Shown here: positions 1,300 to 61,686 of the stretch, piece after piece | Layout of the letters: each line of letters starts with the position of its first letter | Numbering within the stretch: position 1 is the stretch's first letter | Source: Sulfuritalea sp. | Lineage (GTDB): Bacteria > Pseudomonadota > Gammaproteobacteria > Burkholderiales > Rhodocyclaceae | Assembly (NCBI GenBank): GCA_023229685.1 | Contig: JALNYT010000008.1 | Location: 51,817-115,816, forward strand | Direction of reading: 5' to 3' | DNA length: 64,000 nt | Program-made: the position numbers and the translations under genes | Notes under the pieces: model-generated | Told to the model about the DNA's origin: nothing | What the model saw: the letters and a program-made list of their open reading frames with translations, nothing else | The model's database searches: none

Positions 1300-2502
1300 T
1301 CAGTCGATCCGGCAGCTGCGAAAGCCGACAAAAATGTCGTCGCGCTGTGGTTCGTAGTAGTTGCGATAGCGCGGGTTGCGCATGCGCGCGCGAGTGGCGA
1401 AGGAGCCGCCGCGTACGCTGCGGTGGGTATAAAAAAACGGTGCGGCGTATTCGGCGTAGGGGTCGGGGCTGAAGCCCGGATAGGGCGCAAACGCGCTGGC
1501 GGTCCATTCCCAGACCTGGTTGCCCCAGTTGAAGTTGGCGGCCTGCAGGGCGGCGTATTCCCACTCCGCTTCGCTCGGCAGGCGGCGGCCGGCCCAGCGA
1601 CACCAGGCCTCGGCTTCATGCGCCGTCAGGTGAATCACCGGCTGGGCTGGCGCCAGATCGACCCATGTCGCAAAGCGTCGCTGCTGCCAGACTCCATCCT
1701 TGCTGCGCCAGCAGCGCGGCATCACCTGGCCGCTGGCGGCGAGCCATGCCCGGCCGTCTTGCGACCACCACTGCGGCTGCCGGTAGCCGCCTGCCGCGAC
1801 GAACTCCAGGTAGTCTGAATTTCTCACCGGCGTCGCCGAAATCGTGAAGCCGTCGACGCGCTGCGGATGCGCCCACTTCTCGTTGTCGAAGACGAAGCCC
1901 TTGCCTGTCGGCGAACTGCCCATCTGGAATTCGCCCCCGGCCAATTCGATGTCGCCCGCGGGCGGCAGTTCGCCCAGTCCATCGGGGGCCGGCCAGGCCA
2001 GCGTCTGCCCGGTGTAATGAAAGGCCTCGCCGTGCATGTCCTCGTGGAACAGGGCCAGCCGGTGAAAGTAGAGCGCGGGATCGGTGTCCGGCAAAGCCCG
2101 CAAGGCACCCAGTGCAGCATCGAGCGTGTCTTGCAGGTAATGCCGAGTGGCATTCCAGTCGGGCAGATCGAGCAGCCAGCGGCTGTCATGCGGCACATGA
2201 CGCGAGTCGTACCAGCGGTCGGCATCGGGCAGGCGGGAAGGGCGGGGCGCCGCCGCTGCGCCCCGATAGCGCTGGCACCAGTACTCCATGAACCAGGCGA
2301 CGTGGCCGAGTTCCCATAGGGGCGGGTTGATGATGTCAAGGCAGGGAACCTGCAATGGAGCGGGCGGCCGGATGCCTTCGATGCTCACGCTGTCCGTCCA
2401 GGCCGAAAACTGGTCAAGAAGGCTGATCGTATAATCGCGCGCATCCTCCATTGCCTCGGCGAGCAGCCTTTTGTCCGCAGTTCTGAGATCCGGCGTGTCC
2501 AT
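1300..2502 (-). CDS. senA: EgtB-like DinB/FGE-sulfatase-domain C-S/C-Se bond-forming enzyme; by context selenoneine synthase SenA
   Basis: N-terminal DinB-like part (WELGHVAWFMEYW) and C-terminal FGE/sulfatase-modifying-factor part (RGGSFATRARMRNPRYRNYY). It is divergent from the senB-selD pair. Start is ambiguous (ATG at 2502 or 2526). Confidence 0.7.
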   Translation of the reverse strand: MDTPDLRTADKRLLAEAMEDARDYTISLLDQFSAWTDSVSIEGIRPPAPLQVPCLDIINPPLWELGHVAWFMEYWCQRYRGAAAAPRPSRLPDADRWYDSRHVPHDSRWLLDLPDWNATRHYLQDTLDAALGALRALPDTDPALYFHRLALFHEDMHGEAFHYTGQTLAWPAPDGLGELPPAGDIELAGGEFQMGSSPTGKGFVFDNEKWAHPQRVDGFTISATPVRNSDYLEFVAAGGYRQPQWWSQDGRAWLAASGQVMPRCWRSKDGVWQQRRFATWVDLAPAQPVIHLTAHEAEAWCRWAGRRLPSEAEWEYAALQAANFNWGNQVWEWTASAFAPYPGFSPDPYAEYAAPFFYTHRSVRGGSFATRARMRNPRYRNYYEPQRDDIFVGFRSCRID

Positions 2503-3457
2503 TACATCTTCTCCTTCCGTCGTCATTATCAGCCCGGCGCTGGCCAGTGCCAACAACGGCAACTGGCATACGGCGAAGCGCTGGGCGCGCTGCCTCGCAG
2601 GCAAGGCACGGGTGCGCATCGAGCGCGACTGGAGCGGCGCCGACGACGACCTGATGATCGCCCTGCATGCGCGACGTTCGGCCGCTGCGATCGCGGCGTT
2701 TGCCGCACGGTATCCGCAACGGCCGTTGGCGCTGGTGCTGACCGGAACCGATCTCTACCGAGACATTCGCGTCGATGAGTCGGCACAGCGTTCGCTGCTG
2801 CTGTCTGGCCGCCTGGTATTGCTGCAGGCGGAGGGGATCCATGAATTGTCGCCCGGGCAGGCGGCCAAGGCCATGGTCATCTACCAGTCGGCGCGGCCAC
2901 TGACGCCGGGCCGGCGCAGCCGGCGTTACTTCGATCTGGCGCTGGTGGGACATCAGCGGCCGGAGAAGGATCCGCTAACCGCTGTCCGCGCCCTGTTGAG
3001 CCTGCCCTCCGACCTGCCGGTGCGCCTGTTTCATGTCGGCGGCGCGCTGGATGCTGAATTGGCGCGCCAGGTGGCCCAGCTGGGCGCGCAGGACGGCCGC
3101 TACCACTGGCTCGGCGCCTTGTCGCAGCCGGCGACACGCCAGCGCATCAAGCGTTGCCACCTGCTGCTGCTGCCCTCGCTGATGGAGGGTGGCGCCAACG
3201 TCCTGATCGAGGCCGTGACCAGCAGCGTGCCGGTCCTGGGCAGTGATATTCCCGGCAACCGGGGCATGCTCGGTGCCGACTATCCGGGCTGGTTTCCCGC
3301 CGGTGATGCGCAGCGACTGGCGCAACTGATCCTGGCGGCGGCGCGCGATCCGCAGTACTACGCGAACTTGTCCCGGCGCTGTGCCGAGCGGGTATCCTTG
3401 TTCACCCCGGCGCACGAATGCGCCGGAGTTTGCAGTCTTCTTGAAATGACACGGTAA
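2471..3457 (+). CDS. senB: SelD-associated glycosyltransferase (TIGR04348-type), selenosugar synthase SenB
   Basis: N-terminus VVIISPALASANNGNWHTAKRWARCL and GT-B C-terminal motif LLLPSLMEGGANVLIEA. It lies 8 nt upstream of selD. Start is TTG 2471 or GTG 2495. Confidence 0.7.
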   Translation: MSAVLRSGVSITSSPSVVIISPALASANNGNWHTAKRWARCLAGKARVRIERDWSGADDDLMIALHARRSAAAIAAFAARYPQRPLALVLTGTDLYRDIRVDESAQRSLLLSGRLVLLQAEGIHELSPGQAAKAMVIYQSARPLTPGRRSRRYFDLALVGHQRPEKDPLTAVRALLSLPSDLPVRLFHVGGALDAELARQVAQLGAQDGRYHWLGALSQPATRQRIKRCHLLLLPSLMEGGANVLIEAVTSSVPVLGSDIPGNRGMLGADYPGWFPAGDAQRLAQLILAAARDPQYYANLSRRCAERVSLFTPAHECAGVCSLLEMTR

Positions 3458-3465
3458 TCGACACA

Positions 3466-4530
3466 ATGAATTCCCCGAAACTTTCCTCTTCCCCGGTCCG
3501 GCTGACGAGTTTCAGCCATGGCGGCGGCTGCGGCTGCAAGGTTGCGCCCGGCGTCCTGTCGGAAATCTTGCGCGGTGCGCGCGGCTTTCCGGTGCCGAAA
3601 GAACTCATGGTCGGCATTGAAACCGCCGATGACGCCGCGGTGTATCGCCTCAACGACGAGCAGGCCCTGATCGCCACCACCGATTTTTTCATGCCCATCG
3701 TTGATGATCCCTACGACTTCGGCCGCATCGCCGCGACCAATGCGATCAGCGACGTGTATGCCATGGGCGGCACGCCGATCATGGCGCTGGCCCTGGTCGG
3801 CATGCCGCTCGACAAGTTGCCGCTAGAGGTCATCGGCAAGATTCTGGAGGGCGGCGAAAGCGTCTGCGCCGCCGCAGGCATTCCCATCGCCGGGGGCCAC
3901 ACCATCGATTCCGTGGAGCCGATCTATGGCCTGGTAGTGATGGGCCTGGTGCATCCCGACCGGGTGAAGACCAATGCCGGAGCGCGGCCCGGCGACGTGC
4001 TGATCCTGGGCAAGCCACTCGGCGTCGGCGTGCTGTCGGCGGCCCTGAAGAAGGGCGCGCTGGACGCCGCCGGCTATGACGCGATGATCGCCAGTACGAC
4101 CAAGCTGAACACGCCGGGCAGGCACCTCGCGCATTTGGCCGGCGTACATGCCCTGACCGATATCACGGGCTTCGGCCTCCTCGGCCATCTGCTCGAGGTC
4201 TGCCGCGGGGCCAAGCTGGCGGGATTTCTCGACATGGGGAGGATTCCCATGCTGGCCGAGGTCGAGCAACTGGCGACGGCAGGCTACATAACCGGAGCCT
4301 CGGCGCGCAACTGGATGGCCTATGGGGACGACGTCGCGCTGGATGCGGCGATCACGCTTACGCAGCGTGCGCTGCTGACCGATCCGCAGACCAGCGGCGG
4401 CCTGCTGGTGGCCTGTGAGTCGGCGGCAGTCGATGAGGTGCTGAACGTGTTTCGCACCGATGGCTTCGCCGCGGCAGCCGTGATCGGGCGTCTCGAGTCG
4501 GGGCCGGCCCGGGTGACAGTGGCCGCCTGA
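3466..4530 (+). CDS. selD: Selenide, water dikinase (selenophosphate synthetase) SelD/SenC, Cys-type
   Basis: N-terminal SFSHGGGCGCKV active-site loop and an AIR-synthase-like fold (DDAAVY...TTDFF...ISDVYAMGG). Confidence 0.9.
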   Translation: MNSPKLSSSPVRLTSFSHGGGCGCKVAPGVLSEILRGARGFPVPKELMVGIETADDAAVYRLNDEQALIATTDFFMPIVDDPYDFGRIAATNAISDVYAMGGTPIMALALVGMPLDKLPLEVIGKILEGGESVCAAAGIPIAGGHTIDSVEPIYGLVVMGLVHPDRVKTNAGARPGDVLILGKPLGVGVLSAALKKGALDAAGYDAMIASTTKLNTPGRHLAHLAGVHALTDITGFGLLGHLLEVCRGAKLAGFLDMGRIPMLAEVEQLATAGYITGASARNWMAYGDDVALDAAITLTQRALLTDPQTSGGLLVACESAAVDEVLNVFRTDGFAAAAVIGRLESGPARVTVAA

Positions 4531-4534
4531 ACCT

Positions 4535-5536
4535 TTATCCGGCCCGGCGGGCGAAAAACAGCGCAAACCAGGCGCGCGGGTCGGTCCATAGCTGAATGTC
4601 GGCAAACCCCGCCGATGCCAGCAGGGCCGTGAACCCTTGCGGCGAATACTTATACGAGTTCTCGGTGTGAATTCGCTCGCCGGCGGCGAAATGCCGGAGG
4701 CTGCGGCCGGCGGCATCCGGCCAGCTCGCGCTGAGTGCGCGACGGGCCTTCAGGTACATTTCGATGCGGGTCTCGACGGCGTTATAAAAAGCCACGTGCT
4801 GCCAGTCGCCGATGTCGAAATCGGCGTCGAGCCGGGCATTGACGTGCCGCAGCAGGTTGCGGTTGAAGGCGGCGGTGACGCCCAGTTGATCGTCGTAGGC
4901 TGCGTCCAGCAGCGCATGGTCCTTGATCAGATCGACGCCGATCAGCAAGCCGCCAGAGGAGTCCATCTGCGCGGCCAGCCGCTGCAGAAAGAGGCCGGCT
5001 TCGGGCGGGCTGAAGTTGCCGATGCTGGAGCCGGGATAGAAGAACATGCGCCGCTCCGGCGGCAACTCGTCGGGCAGCTGGAGTTCATGAGTGAAGTCGA
5101 GTCCGATGCCCATCATTTCGATCGCCGGCAGTTCGCGTTGCAGGTGCTGCAGCGAATCGCGCAGGAAATCGACCGAAATATCCACCGCGACATAGCGCGT
5201 GGGAAGCACTCCGGCGTGGAAAAGTTTGCCGGCCTTGACGCAGCTGCCGCAACCGAGGTCGATCAGCGTGAAGTCTTCGCCCAACGCCTGCCGGATGGCC
5301 GGCAGATGCTCGATGAAGATGGCGGCTTCGGTACGGGTCGGGTAGTACTCGGGCAGTTCGGTAATCGCCTCGAACAGACGTGAGCCGAGCGCGTCGTAGA
5401 AGAACTTCGGCGCAATGTACGCCTGCGGCTGCAGCAGTCCGGCGGCCAGTTCCCGGCGCAAACCGGCGTTCTGCTGCGGCGAATCCCAGTCGAGAATCTG
5501 ATGCAGTCTGACTTGGGGCGGCATTTTAGAGCCCAC
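4535..5536 (-). CDS. egtD: L-histidine N-alpha-methyltransferase EgtD (hercynine synthase)
   Basis: Motifs KFFYDALGSRLFEAITELPEYYPTRTE...LIDLGCGS...YNAVETRIEMYL...IHTENSYKY are typical of EgtD. Confidence 0.85.
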   Translation of the reverse strand: MGSKMPPQVRLHQILDWDSPQQNAGLRRELAAGLLQPQAYIAPKFFYDALGSRLFEAITELPEYYPTRTEAAIFIEHLPAIRQALGEDFTLIDLGCGSCVKAGKLFHAGVLPTRYVAVDISVDFLRDSLQHLQRELPAIEMMGIGLDFTHELQLPDELPPERRMFFYPGSSIGNFSPPEAGLFLQRLAAQMDSSGGLLIGVDLIKDHALLDAAYDDQLGVTAAFNRNLLRHVNARLDADFDIGDWQHVAFYNAVETRIEMYLKARRALSASWPDAAGRSLRHFAAGERIHTENSYKYSPQGFTALLASAGFADIQLWTDPRAWFALFFARRAG

Positions 5537-5537
5537 T

Positions 5538-6248
5538 TTAGTCGGCCAGTAGCAGAAACACGGTAGGGCGCTTTTCCAGGTCCGGCGGCGTGGCCGTTTT
5601 CCAGTCGGCGATGCGACGTGTGGCGATTTGCTCGCTGGCCAGCGTCAGGTCGGTCGCTAGGCAAAGCCGCGTTTTCGGCCGGCAGTTCAGCAGCAGTGCG
5701 GCAAACAGGGCGCGGTTCCGGTACGGGGTTTCGATGAATATCTGGGTTTGCTGCAGACGCGCCGATTCCTTTTCCAGTTCGGCGATGCGGCTGCCGCGCT
5801 CCGGTTCGCGCGCCGGCAGGTAGCCGTGAAAGGCGAAGCGCTGGCCGTCCAGGCCGGAGGCCATCAGGGCCAGCAGCAACGAGGAAGGGCCCACCAGCGG
5901 CCTGACGCTGAGCCCCAGTTCGTGGGCGCGGCGCACCAGCAAGGCGCCGGGATCGGCCACCGCGGGGCAGCCCGCTTCGGACATCAGACCGATGTCGTGG
6001 CCTGCGCGCAGCGGCGCCAGCAGGCGCTCGATGTCAGCCGGCGTGGGTGTCGCAGGCAACTGCTCGATCGCCAGTTCGCGCAAGGGCAGGGGATGGGCGA
6101 TGCGCTTGAGCTCGGCGCGCGCCGTCTTGGCGTTTTCGGCGACAAAACGGGTCAGCCGGCAGGCGGCCTCACGGGTGGTGGCCGGCAAATAATTTTGCCA
6201 AGGAGTGTCGCCGAGGGCGACGGGCAACAGCCAGAGCGTGCCGGACAT
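5538..6248 (-). CDS. SAM-dependent tetrapyrrole-methylase-fold methyltransferase (RsmI paralogue)
   Basis: LWLLPVALGD...GLMSEAGCPAVADPG...GPSSLLLALMASGL pattern of the RsmI/YraL family. Confidence 0.65.
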   Translation of the reverse strand: MSGTLWLLPVALGDTPWQNYLPATTREAACRLTRFVAENAKTARAELKRIAHPLPLRELAIEQLPATPTPADIERLLAPLRAGHDIGLMSEAGCPAVADPGALLVRRAHELGLSVRPLVGPSSLLLALMASGLDGQRFAFHGYLPAREPERGSRIAELEKESARLQQTQIFIETPYRNRALFAALLLNCRPKTRLCLATDLTLASEQIATRRIADWKTATPPDLEKRPTVFLLLAD

Positions 6249-8727: not shown

Positions 8728-9699
8728 ATGACGATCCACACACGAATCAGCGGCACCGGCAGTTATCTGCCCGGCGAACCGATTGGCAACGCGGCCTTGA
8801 TCGCTGCACACGGACTCGAATCGTCCGACGAGTGGATTGTCGAGCGTACCGGCATCCGCAGTCGGCATCTCGCCGCGGCAGGTGTCGCCAGCAGCGATTT
8901 GGCGCTGGAAGCCAGCCGGCGCGCTCTGCAAGCCGCCGGGCGCAAGGCTGAGGAAGTTGATCTCATCATCCTCGCGACCTCGACGCCAGATTACGTTTTC
9001 CCCAGTTCGGCCGCCTTGCTGCAAAGCAAGCTCGGCATCACCAATGGCGCACCGGCCTTCGATGTACAGGCCGTATGCAGCGGCTTCGTCTATGCCATGA
9101 CGATTGCCGAGAAATTCATTCGCTCCGGTTCGCACAAGTGCGCGCTGGTAGTGGGCGCCGAGGTGTTCTCGCGCATCCTCGACTGGAAGGACCGCGGTAC
9201 CTGCGTCCTGTTTGGCGATGGCGCGGGCGCCGTGGTGCTGGAGGCGTCGGAGCAACCCGGTCTGCTGGCCAGCGCAATCCACGCCGACGGCAGCTATCAC
9301 GGCATTCTTTCGGTGCCGGGCCAGGTGTCAGGTGGGGTGGTCACCGGCGATCCCTTCCTGCGCATGGATGGGCCGGCCGTGTTCAAGTTCGCAGTCAAGG
9401 TGCTGGCCGACGTCGCGCATGAAGTGCTGGCGACGGCAGGCATGACGGTGGGGCAGGTGGACTGGCTGATTCCACATCAGGCCAACGTGCGCATCCTGCA
9501 GGCCACGGCGAAGAAACTCCACATACCACCCGAAAATTGCATTGTTACCGTGGCACAGCACGGCAACACGTCGTCCGCGTCGATTCCTCTGGCGCTCGAC
9601 GAATCGGTGCGCGCCGGTCGTATTCAGCGCGGCCAGCATCTGTTGCTGGAGGGCGTTGGCGGCGGCTTCACCTGGGGCGCGACCCTGCTCCGGTTCTGA
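8728..9699 (+). CDS. fabH: 3-oxoacyl-ACP synthase III FabH
   Basis: ISGTGSYLP...[14 protein letters not shown]...HQAN...GNTSSASIP catalytic motifs. The ATG at 8728 was chosen inside ORF 8668..9699. Confidence 0.9.
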
Positions 9700-9715
9700 A
9701 ATCGAGAGACTCGAC

Positions 9716-9818
9716 ATGAAATTTGCACTCGTTTTTAGTTCCAGCATAACGCCCGCTTCCGCGGGCATTAGCTTTCACTGAAGACTCGTGGAAGGAATCA
9801 AATGAAATTTGCACTCGT
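9716..9818 (+). repeat. 17-bp direct repeat (ATGAAATTTGCACTCGT) flanking a 69-bp insert at the fabD start
   Basis: Identical 17-mers lie at 9716-9732 and 9802-9818. The insert contains the hairpin GCCCGC-TTCC-GCGGGC. Confidence 0.7.
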
Positions 9819-10767
9819 CTTTCCCGGTCAGGGTTCCCAGTCGCTCGGCATGATGGCCGCTTACGGCGATGCGGCAGTGATCCGCGCCACCTTCGACGAG
9901 GCTTCGGCGGCATTGGGACGCGACTTGTGGCAACTGGTCACGGAAGGCCCGGCAGAGGCACTGAATCAGACGGTCAATACGCAGCCCCTGATGCTCACCG
10001 CCGGCATTGCCGCCTATCGCCTGTGGCTTGAAAAGGGCGGTCCGCAACCGGCTTTGGTGGCCGGGCACAGCCTTGGCGAGTATTCGGCGCTGGTGGCGGC
10101 CGGAGTGCTGCAATTGAAGGACGCGGTACCGCTGGTGGAACTGCGCGCCCAGGCGATGCAGGCCGCCGTGCCGGCCGGTGAAGGCGCCATGGCGGCGGTC
10201 ATGGGCCTTGATGCCGCGGCCGTGATTGAAGCCTGCGCCGAGGCGGCGCAAGGGCAGGTGGTGCAAGCCGTGAATTTCAACGAGCCGAAGCAGACCGTGA
10301 TTGCCGGCCACAAGGCGGCGGTCGAGCGTGCGGCTGAACTGGTCAAGGCGAAAGGGGCCAAGCGCGCGCTGATGCTGCCGGTATCGGCGCCTTTCCATTG
10401 CTCGCTGATGTTGCCGGCGGCGGAAAAACTGAAGCTGCGTCTGGCGCAACTGAGTTTTGCCACGCCGCAGATTCCCGTGCTCAACAACGTCGATGTGGCG
10501 CAGCTTGCGGATCCGGTCGCGATCAGGGATGCGCTGGTGCGTCAGGCGGCCTCGCCGGTGCGTTGGGTCGAGACCATGCAGGCGATGCAGGCGGCAGGGG
10601 TGACCCATGTCTTCGAGTGTGGTCCGGGCAAGGTGTTATCGGGACTGGTCAAGCGCTGCGTCGACAGCCTCAACGGCGGCGCCATGAATGACCTGGCTGC
10701 GATGGATGCAGTTCTGACAGTCGTATCCCACCAGGGGATACCGTCCCCGGCACGGCCGGGAACATAA
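9802..10767 (+). CDS. fabD: Malonyl-CoA-ACP transacylase FabD
   Basis: FPGQGSQSLGM...GHSLGEYSAL motifs. Confidence 0.9.
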   Translation: MKFALVFPGQGSQSLGMMAAYGDAAVIRATFDEASAALGRDLWQLVTEGPAEALNQTVNTQPLMLTAGIAAYRLWLEKGGPQPALVAGHSLGEYSALVAAGVLQLKDAVPLVELRAQAMQAAVPAGEGAMAAVMGLDAAAVIEACAEAAQGQVVQAVNFNEPKQTVIAGHKAAVERAAELVKAKGAKRALMLPVSAPFHCSLMLPAAEKLKLRLAQLSFATPQIPVLNNVDVAQLADPVAIRDALVRQAASPVRWVETMQAMQAAGVTHVFECGPGKVLSGLVKRCVDSLNGGAMNDLAAMDAVLTVVSHQGIPSPARPGT

Positions 10768-10779
10768 AAGGAAACTGAT

Positions 10780-11526
10780 ATGGCGGACTTGAAGGGACAG
10801 ATAGCGCTGGTGACGGGCGCATCACGCGGCCTGGGCCGCGCCATCGCACTCGAGCTGGGCGCCCAGGGTGCAACGGTGATCGGCACTGCGACCTCGGAAG
10901 CGGGGGCGGCCGAGATCCAGAAGACGCTGGACACGGCCGGCATCACCGGCTGGGGAGCGATGGTCAATGTCACCGAGGCGGCAGCCTGCGAAGCGCTGAT
11001 CGGCGAGATCGACAAGAAGTTCGGGGCGGTTTCCGTGCTGGTCAATAACGCCGGCATTACCCGCGACAACCTTGCGATGCGCATGAAGGACGACGAATGG
11101 GATCTGGTCATCGAGACCAATCTCAAGGCCGTGTTCCGCCTGTCCAAGCTGGTCATGCGCGGCATGATGAAGGCGCGCTTCGGACGCATCATCAATATCA
11201 CCTCGGTGGTCGGCGAGGCGGGCAACCCGGGCCAGGCCAACTACGCCGCCGCCAAGGCCGGGGTGGCCGGCATGAGCCGTGCCCTGGCACAGGAACTCGG
11301 CAGCCGCAACATTACGGTGAATTGCGTGGCGCCCGGTTTCATCGATACCGACATGACCAGGGCACTGCCGGATGCGCAACGCGACGCGTTGCTGGGGAGG
11401 ATTCCGTTGGGTCGCCTCGGACAGCCGGACGAGATCGCGGCGACCGTGGCATTTCTTGCATCGAAGCGCGCCGGATACATCACCGGCAGCACGCTGAATG
11501 TCAATGGCGGCATGTATATGAATTGA
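10780..11526 (+). CDS. fabG: 3-oxoacyl-ACP reductase FabG
   Basis: SDR motifs: TGASRGLG, NNAG, YAAAKAG. Confidence 0.9.
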   Translation: MADLKGQIALVTGASRGLGRAIALELGAQGATVIGTATSEAGAAEIQKTLDTAGITGWGAMVNVTEAAACEALIGEIDKKFGAVSVLVNNAGITRDNLAMRMKDDEWDLVIETNLKAVFRLSKLVMRGMMKARFGRIINITSVVGEAGNPGQANYAAAKAGVAGMSRALAQELGSRNITVNCVAPGFIDTDMTRALPDAQRDALLGRIPLGRLGQPDEIAATVAFLASKRAGYITGSTLNVNGGMYMN

Positions 11527-11888: not shown

Positions 11889-13124
11889 GTGTCGCGACGC
11901 CGAGTGGTCGTTACCGGTCTGGGGCTTGTCTCCCCGGTTGGCAATAATGTCCCCGAAGCCTGGGGCAACCTGCTTGCCGGCAAGAGCGGTATCGGACCGA
12001 TTACCCGCTTCGATGCATCGGCTTTGTCGGTGCGCATCGCGGGGGAGGTGAAGGGCTTCGATGTCGCTGCCTACCTGTCGGCGAAGGAAGCGCGCCGGAT
12101 GGATACCTTCGTTCATTTCGGCATGGCGGCCGGGATCCAGGCCTTCCGCGATTCGGGGCTCCAGGTAAGCGCCGAAAACGCCGAGCGCATGGGGGTCAAC
12201 ATCGGATCGGGGATCGGCGGCCTGCCGATGATCGAGGATACGCACAACGACTATCTGGCCGGCGGTCCGCGCAAGATATCGCCTTTCTTCATTCCCGGCA
12301 CCATCATCAACATGATCTCGGGCAACCTGTCGATCATGCTGGGCTTGAAGGGACCGAACATTGCGGTGGTGACGGCCTGCACCACGGGCCTGCATGCAAT
12401 CGGAATCAGTGCGCGCATGATCGAGTACGGCGATGCCGACGTGATGGTGTGCGGCGGCGCTGAAGCCACCACCACGCCGCTGGCGGTCGGCGGCTTCGCT
12501 TCGGCCAGGGCCTTGTCTACCCGTAACGACGATCCCGCAACATCGAGCCGCCCCTGGGACCGGGATCGCGACGGCTTCGTCCTAGGTGAAGGTTCCGGCG
12601 TCATGGTGCTCGAGGAATACGAGCACGCCAAGGCGCGCGGGGCAAGGATCTACGCCGAACTTGCCGGTTTCGGCATGAGCGGCGACGCCTACCACATGAC
12701 CGCACCGGATACCGACGGTCCGCGACGCAGCATGGTCAACGCACTGAAGAATGCCGGTGTGAATCCGGACCAGGTGCAGTATGTCAATGCTCACGGCACC
12801 TCGACGCCGCTGGGTGACAAGAACGAGACCGAGGCCATCAAGCTGGCTTTCGGTGCTGACGTGGCGAAGACATTGGTGGTGAATTCGACCAAGTCGATGA
12901 CGGGTCATTTACTGGGCGGTGCGGGCGGTCTCGAGTCCGTGATCACGGTGCTCGCCGTGCATCATCAGGTATCGCCGCCGACCATCAACATCTTCAATCA
13001 GGATCCGGAGTGCGATCTGGATTACTGCGCCAATACGGCGCGGCCGATGAAGATCGATGTCGCTCTGAAGAACAACTTTGGCTTTGGCGGTACCAACGGC
13101 TCACTGGTTTTCCGTCGCATCTAG
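11889..13124 (+). CDS. fabF: 3-oxoacyl-ACP synthase II FabF
   Basis: VVTGLG...ACTTG...NAHGTSTPLGD...GHLLGGAG motifs. GTG start. Confidence 0.9.
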   Translation: MSRRRVVVTGLGLVSPVGNNVPEAWGNLLAGKSGIGPITRFDASALSVRIAGEVKGFDVAAYLSAKEARRMDTFVHFGMAAGIQAFRDSGLQVSAENAERMGVNIGSGIGGLPMIEDTHNDYLAGGPRKISPFFIPGTIINMISGNLSIMLGLKGPNIAVVTACTTGLHAIGISARMIEYGDADVMVCGGAEATTTPLAVGGFASARALSTRNDDPATSSRPWDRDRDGFVLGEGSGVMVLEEYEHAKARGARIYAELAGFGMSGDAYHMTAPDTDGPRRSMVNALKNAGVNPDQVQYVNAHGTSTPLGDKNETEAIKLAFGADVAKTLVVNSTKSMTGHLLGGAGGLESVITVLAVHHQVSPPTINIFNQDPECDLDYCANTARPMKIDVALKNNFGFGGTNGSLVFRRI

Positions 13125-38973: not shown

Positions 38974-39545
38974 GGCCGAGGCGTCGCGCGTGACTCTTGA
39001 TCCGCGCTATTGCTTTAGAAAATCAATGACCTAGATGCGTGTCGTAGAAGTTTTTGAAATAACTTGAAGGCCGCCTGCGCAGCGGAAGCGGTCGTTGGAC
39101 TATGGTTGTTCGAATAGCCACTCAGGGTACTGAATGCAGACTCCGATGGGGCAATGCTGCGCCGCAGCTTGAAGGCTGCTCGCGACCTGTGCTAACGTGC
39201 AAATTGCATAAGCAAAAGCCAACTACCTAGCTTGGCTTTGGTTCAAGTTTTGGGTGAACGGACCCATTCTTCTCGGCACATATGTGCCTCCCGTAAGAAA
39301 GACGAAGCACCGCCTCTTAAGGGCGGCCTCAGCTTTTCAACTTTCGGGGAGATGTCATGAAACCATTTATCGCTTTGCATTCGGTCGAAAACATCGGCAC
39401 CACCGATTGTCAGCTCATGACTGTCGAGAACACGTAGTCCCGCAATCCGGATGATCCTGGAGGCGTGAATGCGATACACGCCCTTCATCAGGTTGGCGGG
39501 ATCTTGGTGCCGGATGGCACCGTCACAACAATGAGAGGAACCATC

Positions 39546-39845
39546 ATGATCCGATTTGTCCGCACGGCCGCGATCGCGCCTGGAAAGCTTGGGAGTGCCC
39601 TCGCATTTGCGAAACAGATTTCCGCGTATCTAGAAAAGCAGCATGAACTGAAGCTGGAGGTAATGACGCCCATAGGCGGCAATCCCCACCGCGTTGCGTG
39701 GAGAGCAGAGTACGCGAACCTCGCCGTCATGGAGCAAACCCAGGCCAAACTAATGGCAGATTCGAAGTACCTTGAGCTCCTCGCCTCTGGTGGGGACAAC
39801 TTCATTGCAGGATCGTTGAACGACTCGATCTGGCGAACCATGTAA
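39546..39845 (+). CDS. Hypothetical small protein (about 99 aa)
   Basis: ATG preceded by AGAGGA. No recognisable motifs. Lies in the AT-richer island. Confidence 0.4.
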   Translation: MIRFVRTAAIAPGKLGSALAFAKQISAYLEKQHELKLEVMTPIGGNPHRVAWRAEYANLAVMEQTQAKLMADSKYLELLASGGDNFIAGSLNDSIWRTM

Positions 39846-39981
39846 GTCATCTCCAGGGCGGCGAGTCGGGCACGAAGGTTCGCACAGCCACGGCCAATAG
39901 CCGGAATCGCTGCGAACCTGACGGAGGAGGAGCGGGCCATTACTGATCGGTTAAGTCTGTGTCGTCGAAGGAGGTGCCGAA

Positions 39982-40173
39982 ATGATTGTGACTACGAAAC
40001 TGGCAGACGTCGAATTAGTAAAATGCGAGGCTTGCCTTAAGGAAGTACCGAAGTCCGGGGCGCAAAACGCGGAAGCGTGGGACTACGTAGCCTATTTTTG
40101 CGGCCAGGAATGCTACGAGGAGTGGGAAGCAGAACAGATGAAGGAAAGGACGCAGGAGGCCGGGGAGCCATAG
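39982..40173 (+). CDS. DUF3330-like small Cys-rich protein
   Basis: Strong SD GAAGGAGG 7 nt upstream. CxxC...FCGxxC pattern (VKCEACLKEVP...AYFCGQECYEEW) as I recall for DUF3330. Confidence 0.5.
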   Translation: MIVTTKLADVELVKCEACLKEVPKSGAQNAEAWDYVAYFCGQECYEEWEAEQMKERTQEAGEP

Positions 40174-40583
40174 TCGCTGATCAGTCGGCGCTGTATGAGC
40201 GACCGCTTCGGCCACGCAAGAGTCGTTGAGTCTTTTTGGAAGCAGCCGCTCAAGAACGAAACCTTGCTCGCGCCAGGCGACAATGAGACCGCCCAGAAGT
40301 CATCAGGAATGGGTGCTAAGTCTCCGGCGACTTGTCCAGACATGATCTCCGCTGTAACAAAGCCTTCCCCGTCCTCATAGGCCATGCGCGCCAATAGTTG
40401 TCCGTGACCGTCGGTGATTTGAGTTTCTCCGAGACAACGCGAAGCGTAGGGCTTCACCTCGTTGCCGGGTGTCATACCTTGAAAGTCACCGGCGTACGAT
40501 GCATGTACGACCGGCAATCCCAGCCTTCGTGCCAATTGGGCGGGCGCGTCTCTGAGCATTTTGGTGAAAATGGCAGGGGTCCT
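40113..40583 (-). pseudogene. C-terminal remnant of a carbon-nitrogen hydrolase (nitrilase superfamily) gene
   Basis: LGLPVVHASYAG...GETQITDGHGQLLARMAYEDGEGFVTAEI resembles a C-N hydrolase C-terminus. The frame is closed by a stop 8 codons upstream of the first Met, and no N-terminal catalytic part is present. Confidence 0.4.
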
Positions 40584-40817
40584 TCACCCCTCACCCGATC
40601 GACGATCGTCGATTCTGGATCGATCTATGAGATCAAGTTTTTCTAAGCCGACGTTGCGATACACGCCAGCAGAGTTTTTCAACAGAATCGGCCGACAACC
40701 GAAATTGATCTCTTCAAGTTTATTGCCAGAAAGCGGCCATCGAAATTCTGGTGCTCCGAAGGTAAAGGCGACAGTCAGGATCTATAGTCGCAGTTTTTCA
40801 AATTTCAGGCGCCGGCC

Positions 40818-40955
40818 ATGCAGGACATTATGGGCTCCTACGTCGAGCAGAGTCAGAAGCTGTTTCAGCAAATGCAGGAGATCAGGCAGGAACAAACACA
40901 CCAGATGCTCTCCGGCAGCTTCGTCAATCCCGATGAACGGGCAGGGAAGAAGTAA
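40818..40955 (+). CDS. Possible 45-aa ORF (MQDIMGSYVEQSQKLFQQMQEIRQEQ...)
   Basis: ATG-to-TAA ORF with a helical Gln-rich composition. No RBS or homology support. Confidence 0.2.
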   Translation: MQDIMGSYVEQSQKLFQQMQEIRQEQTHQMLSGSFVNPDERAGKK

Positions 40956-41285
40956 CGCGACGCAAAATCTAGCCATCGGTATTAAAAGGTCGCCTGCCAC
41001 CCATCTTGGACTTCAAAAACCGATCGAGCCCTGGTATTCCACGAACGCTGTGATGCGACAGCGTGTGCGGCGGCATCTTCTTGGCACGGTTCGATCCGGT
41101 TCTGCCTATTCAGGAGATTGGCATTGCGAATTTCTTGTCATGTACTACCCTAAAAACAGTATGGGGATATTCCCATATTGAATTGCAGGCGGGACTGGGT
41201 ATCCGCTGCGAAGGTCTGTTGCCGATGCGTTCTGCGAAGTGGCGCGTTTCCAGTTTGTCTAGCTTGCACTGGAAGGAGGCGTGCG

Positions 41286-42359
41286 ATGAAAAATCTGGTG
41301 AATGTCAATAGCTCTTCGCTCTCGCGTATGTCGAAGGGGTTGCCAGCAGGAGTTGCGCTTGCCGCCGCGCTGCTCGTTCCCGAAATGGCGGTTGCCCAAG
41401 GTCCGGGGTTGAGTGGTAAGCAGGTGGTAGACGCGGTTTGTTCCAATTGTCACGCCAAGGGCACCGAAGGCGCGCCGAGAATTGGCGATGCGGCGGCTTG
41501 GAAACCGAGGGCCGCGCAGGGTCTGACGAGTCTCAGTCTGCACGCGCTCCAGGGCCTGCGGAAAATGCCGCCACACGGAGGTAATCCGGGTCTGTCGGAC
41601 GGGGATATCAAGCGAGCCATCACCTACATGGTTAATCAATCCGGGGGCCACTGGACTGAACCGGTAGAAGTCGCGACAGCGTTTCGTGATCGCTCCGGCG
41701 AACAAATCGTTAAAGCGCAGTGTATCAAGTGCCACGAGAGTGGCGTTGAAGGAGCCCCGAGAATCGGCGACTTGGCTGCCTGGGGACCGCGATTTTCACA
41801 CGGTACGGACTTTCTGGTTCGTTCCGCGATCAAAGGGCATGGAGCGATGCCTCCCCGTGGCGGCATGGCCGATTTGACCGATTCCGAAATACGCCTTGCG
41901 GCACTCTACATGTTCAACAGAGGCGTCGTGCCGAACGGCGGGCCTCCTGTGGCGAAGGCCAACAGCGAAGACCGCAACCACAAGGTAGTCGAAGGAATGG
42001 ATGTCTATCTCGGCATCGTATCGGCGGAGTCAATCCGGGTCAGGCATCTGACCGAGGACAAACAGGGGGCGATGAGCGGAGAGATTCCCCGCGGCAAAGG
42101 TTATTACCATGTCAATATTTCGCTGCTCGACAGACAGACCGGTGCCGAGATCAAGGACGCAAAGATTGAGCTGAGCGTCGAAGATCCGGTAATGGGCGAA
42201 CAGACGAAGAAGCTCAATTCAATCTCGTTCAATAGTGCGGCGAGCTACGGCAATTACTTCAGCATGCCGGAAAGTTACACGTACAAGATCACGGCCGTAA
42301 TCCACAGGGCCGGCCAGTCCAACGGAACGAAGGCGAAGTTCGACTTCCGGCCAAATTAG
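41286..42359 (+). CDS. Exported dihaem cytochrome c5-type protein fused to a C-terminal beta-sandwich-like domain
   Basis: SD GGAGG, signal peptide, and two c5 modules (CSNCHAKGTEGAPRIGD...MPPHGG and CIKCHESGVEGAPRIGD...MPPRGG). The 150-aa C-terminal part reads GYYHVNISLLD...SYGNYF. Confidence 0.75.
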   Translation: MKNLVNVNSSSLSRMSKGLPAGVALAAALLVPEMAVAQGPGLSGKQVVDAVCSNCHAKGTEGAPRIGDAAAWKPRAAQGLTSLSLHALQGLRKMPPHGGNPGLSDGDIKRAITYMVNQSGGHWTEPVEVATAFRDRSGEQIVKAQCIKCHESGVEGAPRIGDLAAWGPRFSHGTDFLVRSAIKGHGAMPPRGGMADLTDSEIRLAALYMFNRGVVPNGGPPVAKANSEDRNHKVVEGMDVYLGIVSAESIRVRHLTEDKQGAMSGEIPRGKGYYHVNISLLDRQTGAEIKDAKIELSVEDPVMGEQTKKLNSISFNSAASYGNYFSMPESYTYKITAVIHRAGQSNGTKAKFDFRPN

Positions 42360-42668
42360 CCTCAAGAATTCCTGGCCCGCTTGGCCTGGGCCATCGTCTG
42401 CGGTGGCCTAGTAGAGCAGTTGTCATGCAGAGGTATGCCAGAATTTTCCATTCTATGCCTGCTCCCGCCCCCATCCATCGACCGTCCGGCTAACGCTACG
42501 TTTCGGCGGTTCAGGCTGCTGTAAGATCCTTGCTGAACACCGAACTGACTTTGTCACTTCACCTCAACAAGCCACGCCCAATTCGAGCCCAAGCGTAACC
42601 GCGTGGATTTGTTCCAGAGGAAATCGCATTGGATTATTCTGCCTATGTTTTTAGCGGGGTCAATTGAA

Positions 42669-43034
42669 ATGAAAACGCTGTTATCCACCGGTGTCCTGCT
42701 TCTCTCAATCGCTGCCAGCAACACGGCTTTGGCCCAGAAAGCATTACTCGCGCAAGGACCCCCAACTATTTCCTGCGGCTCATACGCTGAGGCAAGAATA
42801 GACGAGGGTACTCTGGGACCGAACTCAATCCGAATTGTCTCCTGGGTTCAGGGATACCTGAGCGGATACAACAGCTACGCAAAACAACCGGTTGTCGCCG
42901 TTCCTACAATTGCGGGCATTGCCACATTTCTTGACAAGTACTGTGCCGACAATCCAATGCACCGTGTGTCCAACGGGATCGACTCGCTTCTTGCAGAACT
43001 AGGTGGCTACAAGCAGCCCTACCTGAGCAAGTAA
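42669..43034 (+). CDS. Small exported protein (HdeA/Rap1a-like Cys pair)
   Basis: Signal peptide MKTLLSTGVLLLSIAASNTALA, then C...WVQGYLSGYN...YCADNP. Confidence 0.45.
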   Translation: MKTLLSTGVLLLSIAASNTALAQKALLAQGPPTISCGSYAEARIDEGTLGPNSIRIVSWVQGYLSGYNSYAKQPVVAVPTIAGIATFLDKYCADNPMHRVSNGIDSLLAELGGYKQPYLSK

Positions 43035-43085
43035 GCTGCACACTGCCTTTTGCCGGCCCCACCCCTCATTCGCCAGGCTGCTCGC

Positions 43086-43577
43086 TTAATGACCAGGCAG
43101 GCCTCCATGAACCGAGCTGCCTGTCAGGGCTTGGCCAGAGCCAAATAGCGGGGTTTCCGGCAAAGGTATGAATGGAATGTAGCGAACATAGATGTTGGAG
43201 TCCTCGCCCATATCGAGTGGAAGCGATCCCCAGATCAGCACTTCGAGCAAGAATCCACCAATGACAACAGCCAAGACTATGGCAACGGAGAAAGGATAAC
43301 GACGGCTATATATTCCTTCATCGTCCTTGCCGAAAAACGTCGGAATGACAGCAACAAGAAACGGAAGAAGTATCGCAAGGGCTGACGCAAGAAAGTAAAT
43401 ATATGTGGCGGGAGAGAGTGCCACACGAAGACTATTCGACCAGCTGAGGCGATGCATGAACAGGGCAAGGTTGAGGTAGCTGCTCAGCAGGTTGTCAAAG
43501 GCGATAACTATTGCTACAAGTACCAACGGGATAAACCAAATCAGGTTTGCCCGCATTGTCTTAACTATACCGGTCAT
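43086..43577 (-). CDS. Hypothetical 4-TM membrane protein
   Basis: Hydrophobic helices in an AT-rich context. No recognisable motifs. Confidence 0.4.
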   Translation of the reverse strand: MTGIVKTMRANLIWFIPLVLVAIVIAFDNLLSSYLNLALFMHRLSWSNSLRVALSPATYIYFLASALAILLPFLVAVIPTFFGKDDEGIYSRRYPFSVAIVLAVVIGGFLLEVLIWGSLPLDMGEDSNIYVRYIPFIPLPETPLFGSGQALTGSSVHGGLPGH

Positions 43578-43778
43578 CGTTTGCTTCCTTTGATTGCGCC
43601 CAGAGCAGCCTGCGAGAGTGCATGATGTTGCTGCGAAGCTTAGAGCGTAGCGCCTGCACATGGTTCCAGCTCAGCGAAGATAGTCTTTCATCCGCGTACT
43701 GTATATTATTCCAGTTACCCATGAAAGCCACTATTCAACTCCTCGGCAGGTGTGGCCTTTCCATGATTGGCGCAACCC

Positions 43779-44213
43779 TCAGGCAGGATTGCACTTTCCG
43801 ATGGCGAGAGCTGGCGTATTTTCTCCCTCTTTCAGGACGCCGCTGCTGTTATCGTCGCTCCAATAGCCGAGGGGATAGACGTACAGGAACCTGAGCTTCT
43901 TGCTGTTGAAACGGAAATCGAAAACTCCGGAGCAAAAGAGATTGCCGGCATCGTTGAAGTCGCTCTTGCACGTGGCTCCGGGAAAGCGATCCCCGGCCTC
44001 CTTGACTTCCCAAGCGTAGGACTTGTGCTTTACGCGCGTGATGAAGAGTTTTTTCTCGGAGCGGAAATCAACGCTCTTCCATTTCTTCGCGCTCTTGTCG
44101 TAAGACAGACCGGTGGTTATATCGGCGACACACAGGTAGGAGTCCGCCGCGAAAGAGTTCAGGGACATGAGTGCGCCGACAACAGCCGGTAACAAATTTC
44201 GCGTCATTTTCAT
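43779..44213 (-). CDS. Hypothetical exported protein
   Basis: Signal peptide MKMTRNLLPAVVGALMSLNSFA and four Cys residues. No recognisable motifs. Confidence 0.45.
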   Translation of the reverse strand: MKMTRNLLPAVVGALMSLNSFAADSYLCVADITTGLSYDKSAKKWKSVDFRSEKKLFITRVKHKSYAWEVKEAGDRFPGATCKSDFNDAGNLFCSGVFDFRFNSKKLRFLYVYPLGYWSDDNSSGVLKEGENTPALAIGKCNPA

Positions 44214-44415
44214 TATCTCCAGAGCATGTTGATTTGAATAGCGGGGGGCAGACTATCTGTTGTGAGTCCTGTCAAAAACGATCTTGAAGAACCAAGGCAG
44301 TCCGCCGGCATGTATCTGCCAACAAGGGTATGTCAAGGATGTCGCGACGCACAATTATGCCCGGCATGCATAGAATGAATGGGTTCGGGATTCTCATTTG
44401 GTAAGCTCGTGCATC

Positions 44416-57148: not shown

Positions 57149-57973
57149 ATGGTGAGCCACGTCTCCGCCGAGTCCTCCACCAGGCTGCTCCGGCATGAGG
57201 CACAACGCCTCGAGATTCTCAAGGCGGCGGCTGCGGCCATTGCCGAACACGGCTTCCACGGCATGACCATGCGGGGTCTTGCCCGGGCGACGGGACGCGG
57301 CCTGGCCACCTTCTACGACTACTTTTCCTCCAAGGAAGACCTGCTCTTCTCGCTGCAGACCGACGCCTTCGGCACCATGGCCAGTTCGGCGAACGCGGCG
57401 CTCGAGGGGGTCGATGACCACGTCGATCGGCTGTATGTCTTCATCTTGAATCACCTCCGCTATGCAGCCGAGAATCGGTCGGTGATGCGGGTGTTGGTTC
57501 ATGAAGCCTCTGCCCTGCCTGCGGGCAGACGCAAGACGGTGCGCCTGCTCAAGGAAGCCTATTTCAATATCTGCCGGGATATCGTGGCATCGATTCTTGC
57601 CGCGGGTTGCAGCTCAGCCGGTGCCGGCGGCGTCGACAGGTTGGACTCCGCCGAGGTCGAGCGGGTGACTTACAGCGTCTTCGGCATGCTCAACTGGAGT
57701 TACGGTTGGTACGACCCCCGCCTTCATGGGACGCCTCAGGATGTCGCCAGGACCATCCATACCCTGGCCGTCTGCGGCCTGGTGGCCCGCGGTCCCGAGC
57801 GCTTCGCCCCGTCCAGCCTGGAGCACCACCTTGACGCAATGGCCCTGCTGCCGCTTATCGGCAGTTCCGGTCGAAAAGTGGCAACTGTCGGCTCCCGGCT
57901 GTCGCCAGCGGCAAAGAAAACAACGAGCGGCGCGGAAATGCGCGCAAGGCTCATGGATAGAAACTCAGTCTGA
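57149..57973 (+). CDS. TetR/AcrR-family transcriptional regulator
   Basis: N-terminal HTH ILKAAAAAIAEHGFHGMTMRGLARATGRGLATFYDYFSSKEDLL. Confidence 0.85.
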   Translation: MVSHVSAESSTRLLRHEAQRLEILKAAAAAIAEHGFHGMTMRGLARATGRGLATFYDYFSSKEDLLFSLQTDAFGTMASSANAALEGVDDHVDRLYVFILNHLRYAAENRSVMRVLVHEASALPAGRRKTVRLLKEAYFNICRDIVASILAAGCSSAGAGGVDRLDSAEVERVTYSVFGMLNWSYGWYDPRLHGTPQDVARTIHTLAVCGLVARGPERFAPSSLEHHLDAMALLPLIGSSGRKVATVGSRLSPAAKKTTSGAEMRARLMDRNSV

Positions 57974-57988
57974 GAGGGGACCAGAGAA

Positions 57989-59950: not shown

Positions 59951-60485
59951 GGTCAAGAAAATCGTCAAGTCCATCACCATTGACGCCGACAAGTGCAACG
60001 GCTGCAAGGCCTGCGAGGTGATCTGCTCTTCCTGGCACGCGACCCCGCGCTACAGCAGCAACAATCCGGCGCGCTCGCGCATCCGCATAGTGCGCCTGCC
60101 GCTGCGGGACATCTACCTGCCGGTCTACGCCGGCGAGTACACCGAGTCGGAGTGCACCGGCCGCGACAAGTACATCATCGACGGCAAGGAATACAACGAG
60201 TGCGACTTCTGCCGCGCTTCCTGCCCCTCGCGCGACCTGTTCAAGGAGCCCGACTCCGGGCTGCCGCTGAAGTGCGACATGTGCGAGGAAACACCGGCGC
60301 TGGCGCAGCCCAAGTGCGTCGAGTGGTGCCACGCCGAGGCGCTGATCTACGTCGAGCGCGAAGAGGAAGTCGAGGAAGACGAGCAGCCCAAGCTGGGTGA
60401 CATCGAGATCGGCCTGGGATCGATGATCGACAAGTACGGCCTGCAGCAGGTGCTGGATACGGTCGCCAGAATGGCGAAGCCGTAA
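59943..60485 (+). CDS. bamC: Fe-S cluster subunit, BamC-like
   Basis: CNGCKACEVIC, CDFCRASCP and CDMCEE...CVEWC motifs. 8-nt overlap with bamB. Confidence 0.75.
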   Translation: MAKVKKIVKSITIDADKCNGCKACEVICSSWHATPRYSSNNPARSRIRIVRLPLRDIYLPVYAGEYTESECTGRDKYIIDGKEYNECDFCRASCPSRDLFKEPDSGLPLKCDMCEETPALAQPKCVEWCHAEALIYVEREEEVEEDEQPKLGDIEIGLGSMIDKYGLQQVLDTVARMAKP

Positions 60486-60517
60486 TGCGTCCGACCAACC
60501 AACAGGGTCAGTAAAGC

Positions 60518-61672: not shown

Positions 61673-61686
61673 GCGAGGACATCAAA

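Follow-up and report, generated by a model that had tools for sequence, protein, structure and literature searches.

A probable sen-type selenoneine biosynthetic locus with an adjoining egtD gene in Sulfuritalea sp.

Four adjacent genes in a metagenome-assembled genome (MAG) of Sulfuritalea sp. (Rhodocyclales) raise the question of whether this bacterium carries a pathway for selenoneine, a selenium antioxidant, and whether a gene for the hercynine-forming enzyme EgtD, which adjoins the other three, belongs to it. The genes occupy positions 1300-5524 of a 64-kb stretch of contig JALNYT010000008.1, which we refer to as the window. They were found intact in a six-frame listing of open reading frames (ORFs), filtered by codon-position GC content (about 0.8 at third positions, GC3), with the order and orientation that an earlier reading of the same DNA (the original prediction) had stated. 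senA (1300..2502, minus strand; 400 amino acids; MCK9382401.1) encodes a protein with DinB and FGE-like domains, predicted to be a selenoneine synthase of the non-heme-iron selenoxide synthase type. Divergent from it lies senB (2495..3457, plus strand; GTG start; 320 amino acids; MCK9382402.1), for a predicted selenosugar synthase, which is a GT-B Se-glycosyltransferase of family TIGR04348. It is followed by selD, also called senC (3466..4530, plus strand; 354 amino acids; NCBI protein within MCK9382401.1 to MCK9382404.1), for a Cys-type selenophosphate synthetase, and by egtD (4535..5524, minus strand; 329 amino acids; MCK9382404.1), for an L-histidine N-alpha-methyltransferase predicted to make hercynine. 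The products of senA, senB and egtD are identical to the public proteins named here.

We conclude that this is very probably a genuine sen-type selenoneine biosynthetic locus, with a hercynine-forming egtD adjoining it. The conclusion builds on the presence of the genes, the families of their products, the active-site signatures and a conserved synteny, all of which are directly apparent. The locus is far beyond chance: the family E-values lie between 1e-110 and 1e-160, and more than 30 species-level genomes keep the synteny. The interpretation of the cluster as senA, senB and senC, made in the original prediction, agrees with every feature of SenA, SenB, SelD and EgtD that could be checked, and the features that define EgtB and OvsA are missing.

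The selenoneine pathway of Variovorax paradoxus (Vp) has been reconstituted in vitro (Kayrouz et al., 2022; bioRxiv 10.1101/2022.04.13.486033). By analogy, SelD (SenC) would convert selenide and ATP to selenophosphate, which SenB would use together with UDP-GlcNAc to form 1-seleno-beta-GlcNAc (SeGlcNAc). EgtD would trimethylate histidine with S-adenosylmethionine, yielding hercynine, and SenA, using Fe(II) and O2, would attach the selenosugar at C2 of hercynine's imidazole ring, forming a selenoxide. The selenoxide would eliminate spontaneously and then be reduced to selenoneine; because the elimination is spontaneous, no EgtC- or EgtE-like step would be needed. Transcription of senA and senB-selD is predicted to diverge from a control region in which their signals overlap, and egtD would be read from the other direction, probably with a unit containing maf and an rsmI-like gene.

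To place the locus among its relatives, we used the SenB protein to scan a single genome of each species and mapped the genes in 10-kb flanks by tblastn. The resulting 51 loci come mostly from Sulfuritalea/Rhodocyclales MAGs (73-89% identity); those from Paraburkholderia, Polaromonas and other Burkholderiales are more distant (45-53%). Of the 33 Sulfuritalea-clade loci in which the junction is covered, 25 have the order azlCD / senA / senB-selD / egtD / rsmI-like / maf. Where a related locus includes both senA and senB, the two are nearly always paired.

The SenA, SenB and SelD proteins

The SenA protein consists of a DinB_2 and an FGE-sulfatase domain, a fold and architecture shared with EgtB. 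One could accordingly read it as an ergothioneine-type sulfoxide synthase, in a locus that makes ergothioneine and in which selD serves selenocysteine or selenouridine metabolism. The public names of the protein point in that direction, being 'ergothioneine biosynthesis protein EgtB' at JGI/IMG and 'SUMF1/EgtB/PvdO family nonheme iron enzyme' at NCBI. The NCBIfam equivalog models do not. Their cut-offs are 420 bits for SenA (NF041186), 360 for EgtB (TIGR03440) and 400 for OvoA; the window protein passes the SenA model with 522.4 bits, and stays below the cut-offs of EgtB (235.6 bits) and OvoA (102 bits). The EgtB of a related locus, L049, gave the reciprocal result (581 bits on the EgtB model, 373 on that of SenA), so the two models discriminate both ways.

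Among proteins of known structure, the nearest sequences are V. paradoxus SenA (VpSenA; 8RYZ/8K5I, 340 bits), OvsA (215 bits) and M. thermoresistibile EgtB (MthEgtB; 150 bits). A neighbour-joining tree (BLOSUM62 distances, 14 sequences, no bootstrap, PDB fragments taken from the alignments) groups the window protein in the SenA clade with VpSenA (53% identity, 338 aligned residues), with OvsA as the sister and EgtB-I and EgtB-II outside. A phylogeny against characterised EgtB and SenA proteins had been proposed as a check on the original prediction, and this result supports it.

The residues of the active site allow a finer assignment. Composite motifs separate the subfamilies of the sulfoxide/selenoxide synthases with non-heme iron (NHISS), and the rule for SenA is xNEH--HRHxHYYN(F/Y)(F/Y)R (PMC11030361). 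We read the motif from an alignment in which the window protein was joined by VpSenA, OvsA and MthEgtB, as PDB fragments, and by SenA-like and EgtB-like proteins of related loci. The window protein has N59, E64, H67 / H105, R108 / H153, M156, H157 / Y349 / Y352, N381, Y382, Y383, R387, thus NEH-HR-HMH-Y-YNYYR, which fits the SenA rule over the positions mapped, namely all but the first 'x' and the two gap positions. The same alignment returns the published motifs of the controls: VpSenA ends in YNFFR, OvsA in MQAYR, MthEgtB reads SDH-RR-HQH-Y-YNWDR, and the EgtB proteins of L049 and L050 read SHH..YNFF, as expected of EgtB-II. The window protein misfits the motifs of EgtB-I (SDH..RR..YNWDR), EgtB-II (SHH..YNFF) and OvsA (..MQAYR).

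At the positions that bind the thiol substrate in EgtB, which are S, D, R87, W415 and D416 in EgtB-I and S, H, H, Y, Y..F, F in EgtB-II, the window protein carries N, E, H105, Y382 and Y383, the SenA set. In particular, His and Tyr stand in for the thiol-binding pair Arg87 and Asp416 of MthEgtB, a replacement reported for all SenA proteins (Kayrouz et al., 2022). The selenium specificity that the original prediction ascribed to the EgtB-like gene is supported by the SenA model being passed, the EgtB model being failed, and the presence of the SenA-specific motif.

The gene context and published biochemistry also speak against a sulfur enzyme. A SenB-family gene is divergently paired with senA, and only 8 nt separate senB from the selD gene behind it. 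Searches with NCBIfam and Pfam of about 55 ORFs of the window found no selA, selB, selU or recognisable selenate transporter, and a tRNA scan of the window found no tRNA-Sec, nor any other tRNA. VpSenA took thioglucose very poorly and formed no ergothioneine (Kayrouz et al., 2022). We consider it very improbable that the locus is an ergothioneine locus of this kind. The original prediction had drawn a further argument from the absence of egtC and egtE. The absence itself is borne out, as the same family searches found no egtA, egtC, egtE or second egtB-like gene in the window; as an argument for selenium it is weak on its own, since egtA and egtC are missing from EgtB-II pathways too.

A comparison with ergothioneine clusters, namely mycobacterial egtABCDE (EgtB-I) and the egtB-egtD clusters of proteobacteria and Chloracidobacterium (EgtB-II), shows both likenesses and differences. 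EgtB shares its fold, iron triad and catalytic Tyr with the window SenA, and EgtD of these clusters is of the same family as the window EgtD, with the same histidine-binding residues. The chalcogen donor, however, would be a selenosugar provided by SenB and SelD in the window, in place of the cysteine or gamma-Glu-Cys used in ergothioneine clusters; in addition, the window lacks egtA, egtC and egtE, the thiol-binding residues differ and the EgtB cut-off is not reached.

A second alternative keeps selenium and changes the product: the locus might make an ovoselenol-type 5-selenohistidine derivative, by OvsA-like chemistry on histidine, or a selenosugar alone. OvsA is the second-best structural relative of the window enzyme, and it is likewise found with selenosugar genes as partners. 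The ovs cluster (ovsA, ovsS, ovsP, ovsM; ovoselenol), found almost exclusively in aquatic gammaproteobacteria, shares the logic of selenophosphate, selenosugar and a non-heme-iron selenoxide synthase (Kayrouz et al., 2024; PMC11030361). Selenosugar-only loci may exist as well: the related locus L004 (7998-10936) has senB-selD and neither senA nor egtD. Directly upstream of its senB, on the same strand and where senA would be, are genes for a PHO4-family (phosphate transporter) and an EamA-family transporter, and L004 may thus be a selenosugar-only locus or one with an importer of selenium oxyanions.

The substrate pocket of the window enzyme argues against this alternative. Its hercynine-binding triad is Y352, N381 and Y382, of the type Y-N-(F/Y), whereas OvsA has M-Q-A; over the end of the motif, the window protein has Y-Y-N-Y-Y-R in place of the Y-M-Q-A-Y-R of OvsA. 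A Y-N-(F/Y) triad specifies hercynine over histidine, and swapping these three residues turns OvsA to SenA chemistry (PMC11030361). Furthermore, the hercynine-forming egtD adjoins, as a substitute for the N-pi methyltransferase gene ovsM of the ovs cluster, and no ovsM-like methyltransferase was recognised at the locus. A product other than selenoneine is therefore, in our judgement, most unlikely.

The glycosyltransferase of the window matches the SenB family in its profile score, N-terminal motif and predicted substrate contacts. It reaches 391.2 bits on TIGR04348 (cut-off 300), a family now named SenB, in agreement with the outcome anticipated by the original prediction for this search. The prediction had also noted that the gene is divergent from the EgtB-like gene and that its product contains ANNGNWHTAKRW, and both are the case; the N-terminal motif of the family is ANNGNW(R/H)T. 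The best PDB match is VpSenB (8FBX, 251 bits), in an alignment that covers nearly the whole protein. We compared the residues that contact selenophosphate and UDP-GlcNAc in VpSenB, as listed in the paper on the SenB crystal structure. G19, N20, T23, H58, T83, G84, Q131, R155, K158, L209 and T214 are kept, as is the EGG motif. Three contacts are substituted: R22 has become His, H211 Gln and H235 Asn, and H235 makes its contact through the main chain.

The SelD protein passes NF002098 with 533 bits (cut-off 299), scores 431 bits on TIGR00476 and contains the AIRS and AIRS_C domains. Residues 19-26 read GGGCGCKV, which makes it a Cys-type enzyme, as the original prediction had stated together with the 8-nt distance from the glycosyltransferase gene. 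We take C22 and K25 to be the equivalents of Cys17 and Lys20 of the E. coli enzyme. The senB stop codon (TAA, 3455-3457) and the selD ATG (3466) are separated by an 8-nt spacer that lacks a ribosome-binding site of its own for selD. On account of this spacer we expect a single senB-selD transcript, and the two genes are probably co-transcribed and translationally coupled. All Sulfuritalea-clade loci in which the junction is covered keep the pair. In the Paraburkholderia loci L038-L043 (around 8770-10960), senA and senB are likewise divergent, with metE and a MetR-like regulator gene after senB; the surrounding 10 kb contain no selD, which means that a selD farther off must supply the selenophosphate.

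Taken together, the three proteins belong to the same families as those of the sen cluster of V. paradoxus DSM 30034 (senA, senB, senC), and all score above the curated cut-offs. Structures of the V. paradoxus enzymes are available for SenA (8K5I, 8RYZ) and SenB (8FBX, 8RZ3). The Fe-binding His triad, the catalytic Tyr, and the hercynine-binding and selenosugar-pocket residues are common to VpSenA or VpSenB and the window proteins, apart from the SenB substitutions given above, and SelD is of the Cys type in both organisms. Where VpSenA has F396-F397, the window enzyme has Y382-Y383, a difference within the published F/Y rule. Further differences are the start codons of senA and senB, which overlap by 8 nt in the window, and the host, a Sulfuritalea MAG.

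EgtD and its linkage to the sen genes

The EgtD protein scores 367.4 bits on TIGR03438 (cut-off 290.9), contains the Pfam domain Methyltransf_33 (3.6e-101) and has M. smegmatis EgtD (4PIM, 215 bits) as its best PDB match. In the alignment with 4PIM, the residues Y39, F47, Y56, N166, Y206, M252, E282 and S284 of MsEgtD are all kept; these are reportedly the histidine-binding residues (Vit et al. 2015). egtD and selD are convergent, their stop codons 4 nt apart. The physical linkage asserted by the original prediction thus holds, but it is not new, as the co-localisation of egtD with a small fraction of sen clusters was noted when the V. paradoxus cluster was described (Kayrouz et al., 2022). 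The locus is a clear though unremarkable instance of the pathway described in that year.

How closely egtD is tied to the sen genes is a separate question. The gene begins 13 nt downstream of a gene for an RsmI-like methyltransferase (5538..6248), on the same strand, and is probably the last gene of a transcription unit with maf and the rsmI-like gene. egtD might then be a mere neighbour of the sen genes, mainly feeding an ergothioneine pathway encoded elsewhere, with the adjacency a matter of inherited synteny and not of selected linkage. The orientation and the position after the rsmI-like gene favour this explanation, and so does the finding that most sen clusters draw hercynine from the canonical pathway (bioRxiv 10.1101/2022.04.13.486033).

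The distribution of egtD in the Sulfuritalea clade also favours it. No trace of the gene was found in 8 of the 33 informative loci (L004, L011, L022, L024, L032, L033, L035, L051), with the exception of a 29-codon remnant that L051 keeps at 11432-11518. In the egtD-less loci, the gap between selD and the rsmI-like gene is only 37-130 nt (junction around 12000-12070 in most). Six of the eight (L011, L035, L022, L024, L032, L033) have intact senA, senB and selD. On the SelD tree the eight loci fall at no fewer than four separate places inside the egtD-positive clade; this scatter indicates that egtD is ancestral in the clade and was lost repeatedly.

Other observations speak against egtD being a mere neighbour. 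Linkage of sen genes to egtD recurs outside the clade in unrelated arrangements: egtD is about 6 kb away in L037, and in L049 (8788-14470) and L050 (8509-14471) the sen cluster with senA, senB and selD is followed by a true EgtB-II gene (TIGR03440, 581 bits) and then egtD, so that a single egtD serves both the selenoneine and the ergothioneine route. Within the clade, egtD is gone in both loci that lack senA (L051 and L004) and in 6 of the 31 others, a contrast in small numbers that is not corrected for kinship. The co-loss of senA and egtD is suggestive of functional coupling. In L051 (7790-10348), senA and the 5' two-thirds of senB (about 190 codons) have been replaced by roughly 2 kb of 51-54% GC without recognisable ORFs. 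selD is intact beside the decayed senA, senB and egtD, which suggests another role for selD in that lineage. Finally, no EgtB was recognised in the 64-kb window. We regard the explanation of egtD as a mere neighbour as possible but rather unlikely; EgtD would supply the SenA substrate wherever its gene sits, and this explanation therefore touches regulation and evolution, not the chemistry.

The opposite proposal is that egtD of the Sulfuritalea clade is an ancestral, dedicated fourth selenoneine gene, with hercynine serving only selenoneine and the ergothioneine pathway absent. We put this forward tentatively and consider it doubtful. If it were true, the locus would be expected to decay together, in the way that senA, senB and egtD have been lost or truncated in L051 and senA and egtD are missing in L004; selD persists in both, presumably for other selenium uses.

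Several points weigh against the reading as a selenoneine locus. The substitutions in SenB of Arg22 by His and of His211 by Gln both affect predicted contacts to UDP-ribose or uracil. egtD is on the opposite strand and likely in another transcription unit than senB-selD. Its clean loss from six related loci that keep the sen genes means that the linkage is not obligatory, and that hercynine may come from elsewhere. The view is limited to 64 kb of the genome, and a canonical EgtB, SelA, SelB or SelU encoded elsewhere may share EgtD or SelD. Lastly, what the enzymes of this locus do and make, and how its genes are grouped into transcripts, is deduced from sequence.

Gene starts and the shared control region

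The starts of three of the genes needed attention. The maximal ORF of senA is 1300..2619 (minus strand), and its true start is the ATG at 2502, as originally predicted: an alignment of 26 relatives shows this ATG conserved, together with a ribosome-binding site (AAGGAG/GGAGG) that precedes it by 8 nt, and the public protein has the same 400 residues. An ATG at 2526 (M32) was considered and rejected, since no public protein matches it exactly and the 'CAT' at that place belongs to senB Ile codons. The end of the glycosyltransferase gene at 3457 stands as predicted, and its start has been moved from the TTG at 2471, which relatives do not share and no public gene call uses, to the GTG at 2495 (320 amino acids), which equals the public call. 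Similarly, egtD does converge on selD as predicted, with its start corrected from the GTG at 5536 to the ATG at 5524 (329 amino acids), in accordance with the public call. The public name of the SenB protein is 'TIGR04348 family glycosyltransferase'; this name and those of the SenA protein date from before 2022 and are out of date.

The divergent genes share a control region (2425..2560, no strand assigned) with predicted promoter and ribosome-binding sites. On opposite strands, the start of senA (ATG, 2502..2500, minus) and that of senB (GTG, 2495, plus) overlap by 8 nt; in some relatives the overlap of the two starts is the palindrome CATG. The ribosome-binding site of senA, AAGGAG, is the reverse complement of 2511-2516 and lies within the senB coding sequence. 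A sigma-70-like candidate promoter for senA (-35 TTGGCA, 2553..2548; -10 GATAAT, 2530..2525) is embedded in the N-terminal part of senB, where its codons are most conserved. In the promoter scan this candidate matches at 10 of 12 positions on the minus strand, and the region has 3 sites where 0.8 are expected. For senB, a TATAAT at 2430-2435 (plus strand) lies inside senA codons (D-Y-T, T-ending) and is present in 24 of 26 relatives despite a GC3 of 80%; it is a possible -10 element, with no recognisable -35. We infer the promoter roles of these sites, all of which are predicted, from their sequences. An Rfam scan of the window found no family, and hence no riboswitch. The overlapping divergent starts with their embedded signals, together with the repeated loss and co-decay of egtD, are the only points of the locus that are mildly unusual.

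Surroundings and significance of the locus

Outside the locus, the window is ordinary betaproteobacterial housekeeping DNA. Upstream lie azlC and azlD (242-1296), for exporters of the branched-chain amino acid / azaleucine family, which converge on senA with a 3-nt gap, an adjacency kept throughout the Sulfuritalea clade. The AzlCD-type family is reported to export histidine in Bacillus subtilis, and we speculate that an exporter of this type may export hercynine or selenoneine. As a pathway gene pair, azlCD was nevertheless rejected: it is adjacent only in the Sulfuritalea clade, by inherited synteny, and in none of the unrelated sen loci L037-L050. The RsmI-like methyltransferase was likewise rejected as a pathway gene and regarded as housekeeping context, because its gene stays by maf in the relatives without egtD, including L004 and L051.

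On the other side, the rsmI-like gene, maf and yceD are followed by plsX, fabH (family not checked), fabD, fabG and fabF. Further on are nadB, degP, lepA, era, recO, pdxJ, acpS and nagZ, and then ABC transporters, moaA and moeA. Positions 39000-44400 have a GC content of 52-58%, where the background is about 65%, and few recognisable ORFs, with a dihaem cytochrome c gene (41178..42359) and the rest without a family; this segment may have been horizontally acquired. The stretch 57149-63999 encodes a TetR-family regulator, aldehyde:ferredoxin-oxidoreductase-like, 4Fe-4S and TfrB/HdrD-like proteins, and a large HdrA-like flavoprotein that runs past the window end, all unrelated to the sen locus.

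A literature search for Sulfuritalea together with selenoneine found, within the library searched, no paper linking the two. Although knowledge of the pathway itself is unchanged, the locus adds a well-supported, self-contained four-gene selenoneine set in Sulfuritalea, an abundant freshwater and groundwater lineage of sulfur- and hydrogen-oxidising denitrifiers. Its compactness would make the set a handy cassette for heterologous selenoneine production. The presence, loss and co-decay of egtD among its relatives form a small natural experiment on how firmly the supply of hercynine is tied to the sen genes.

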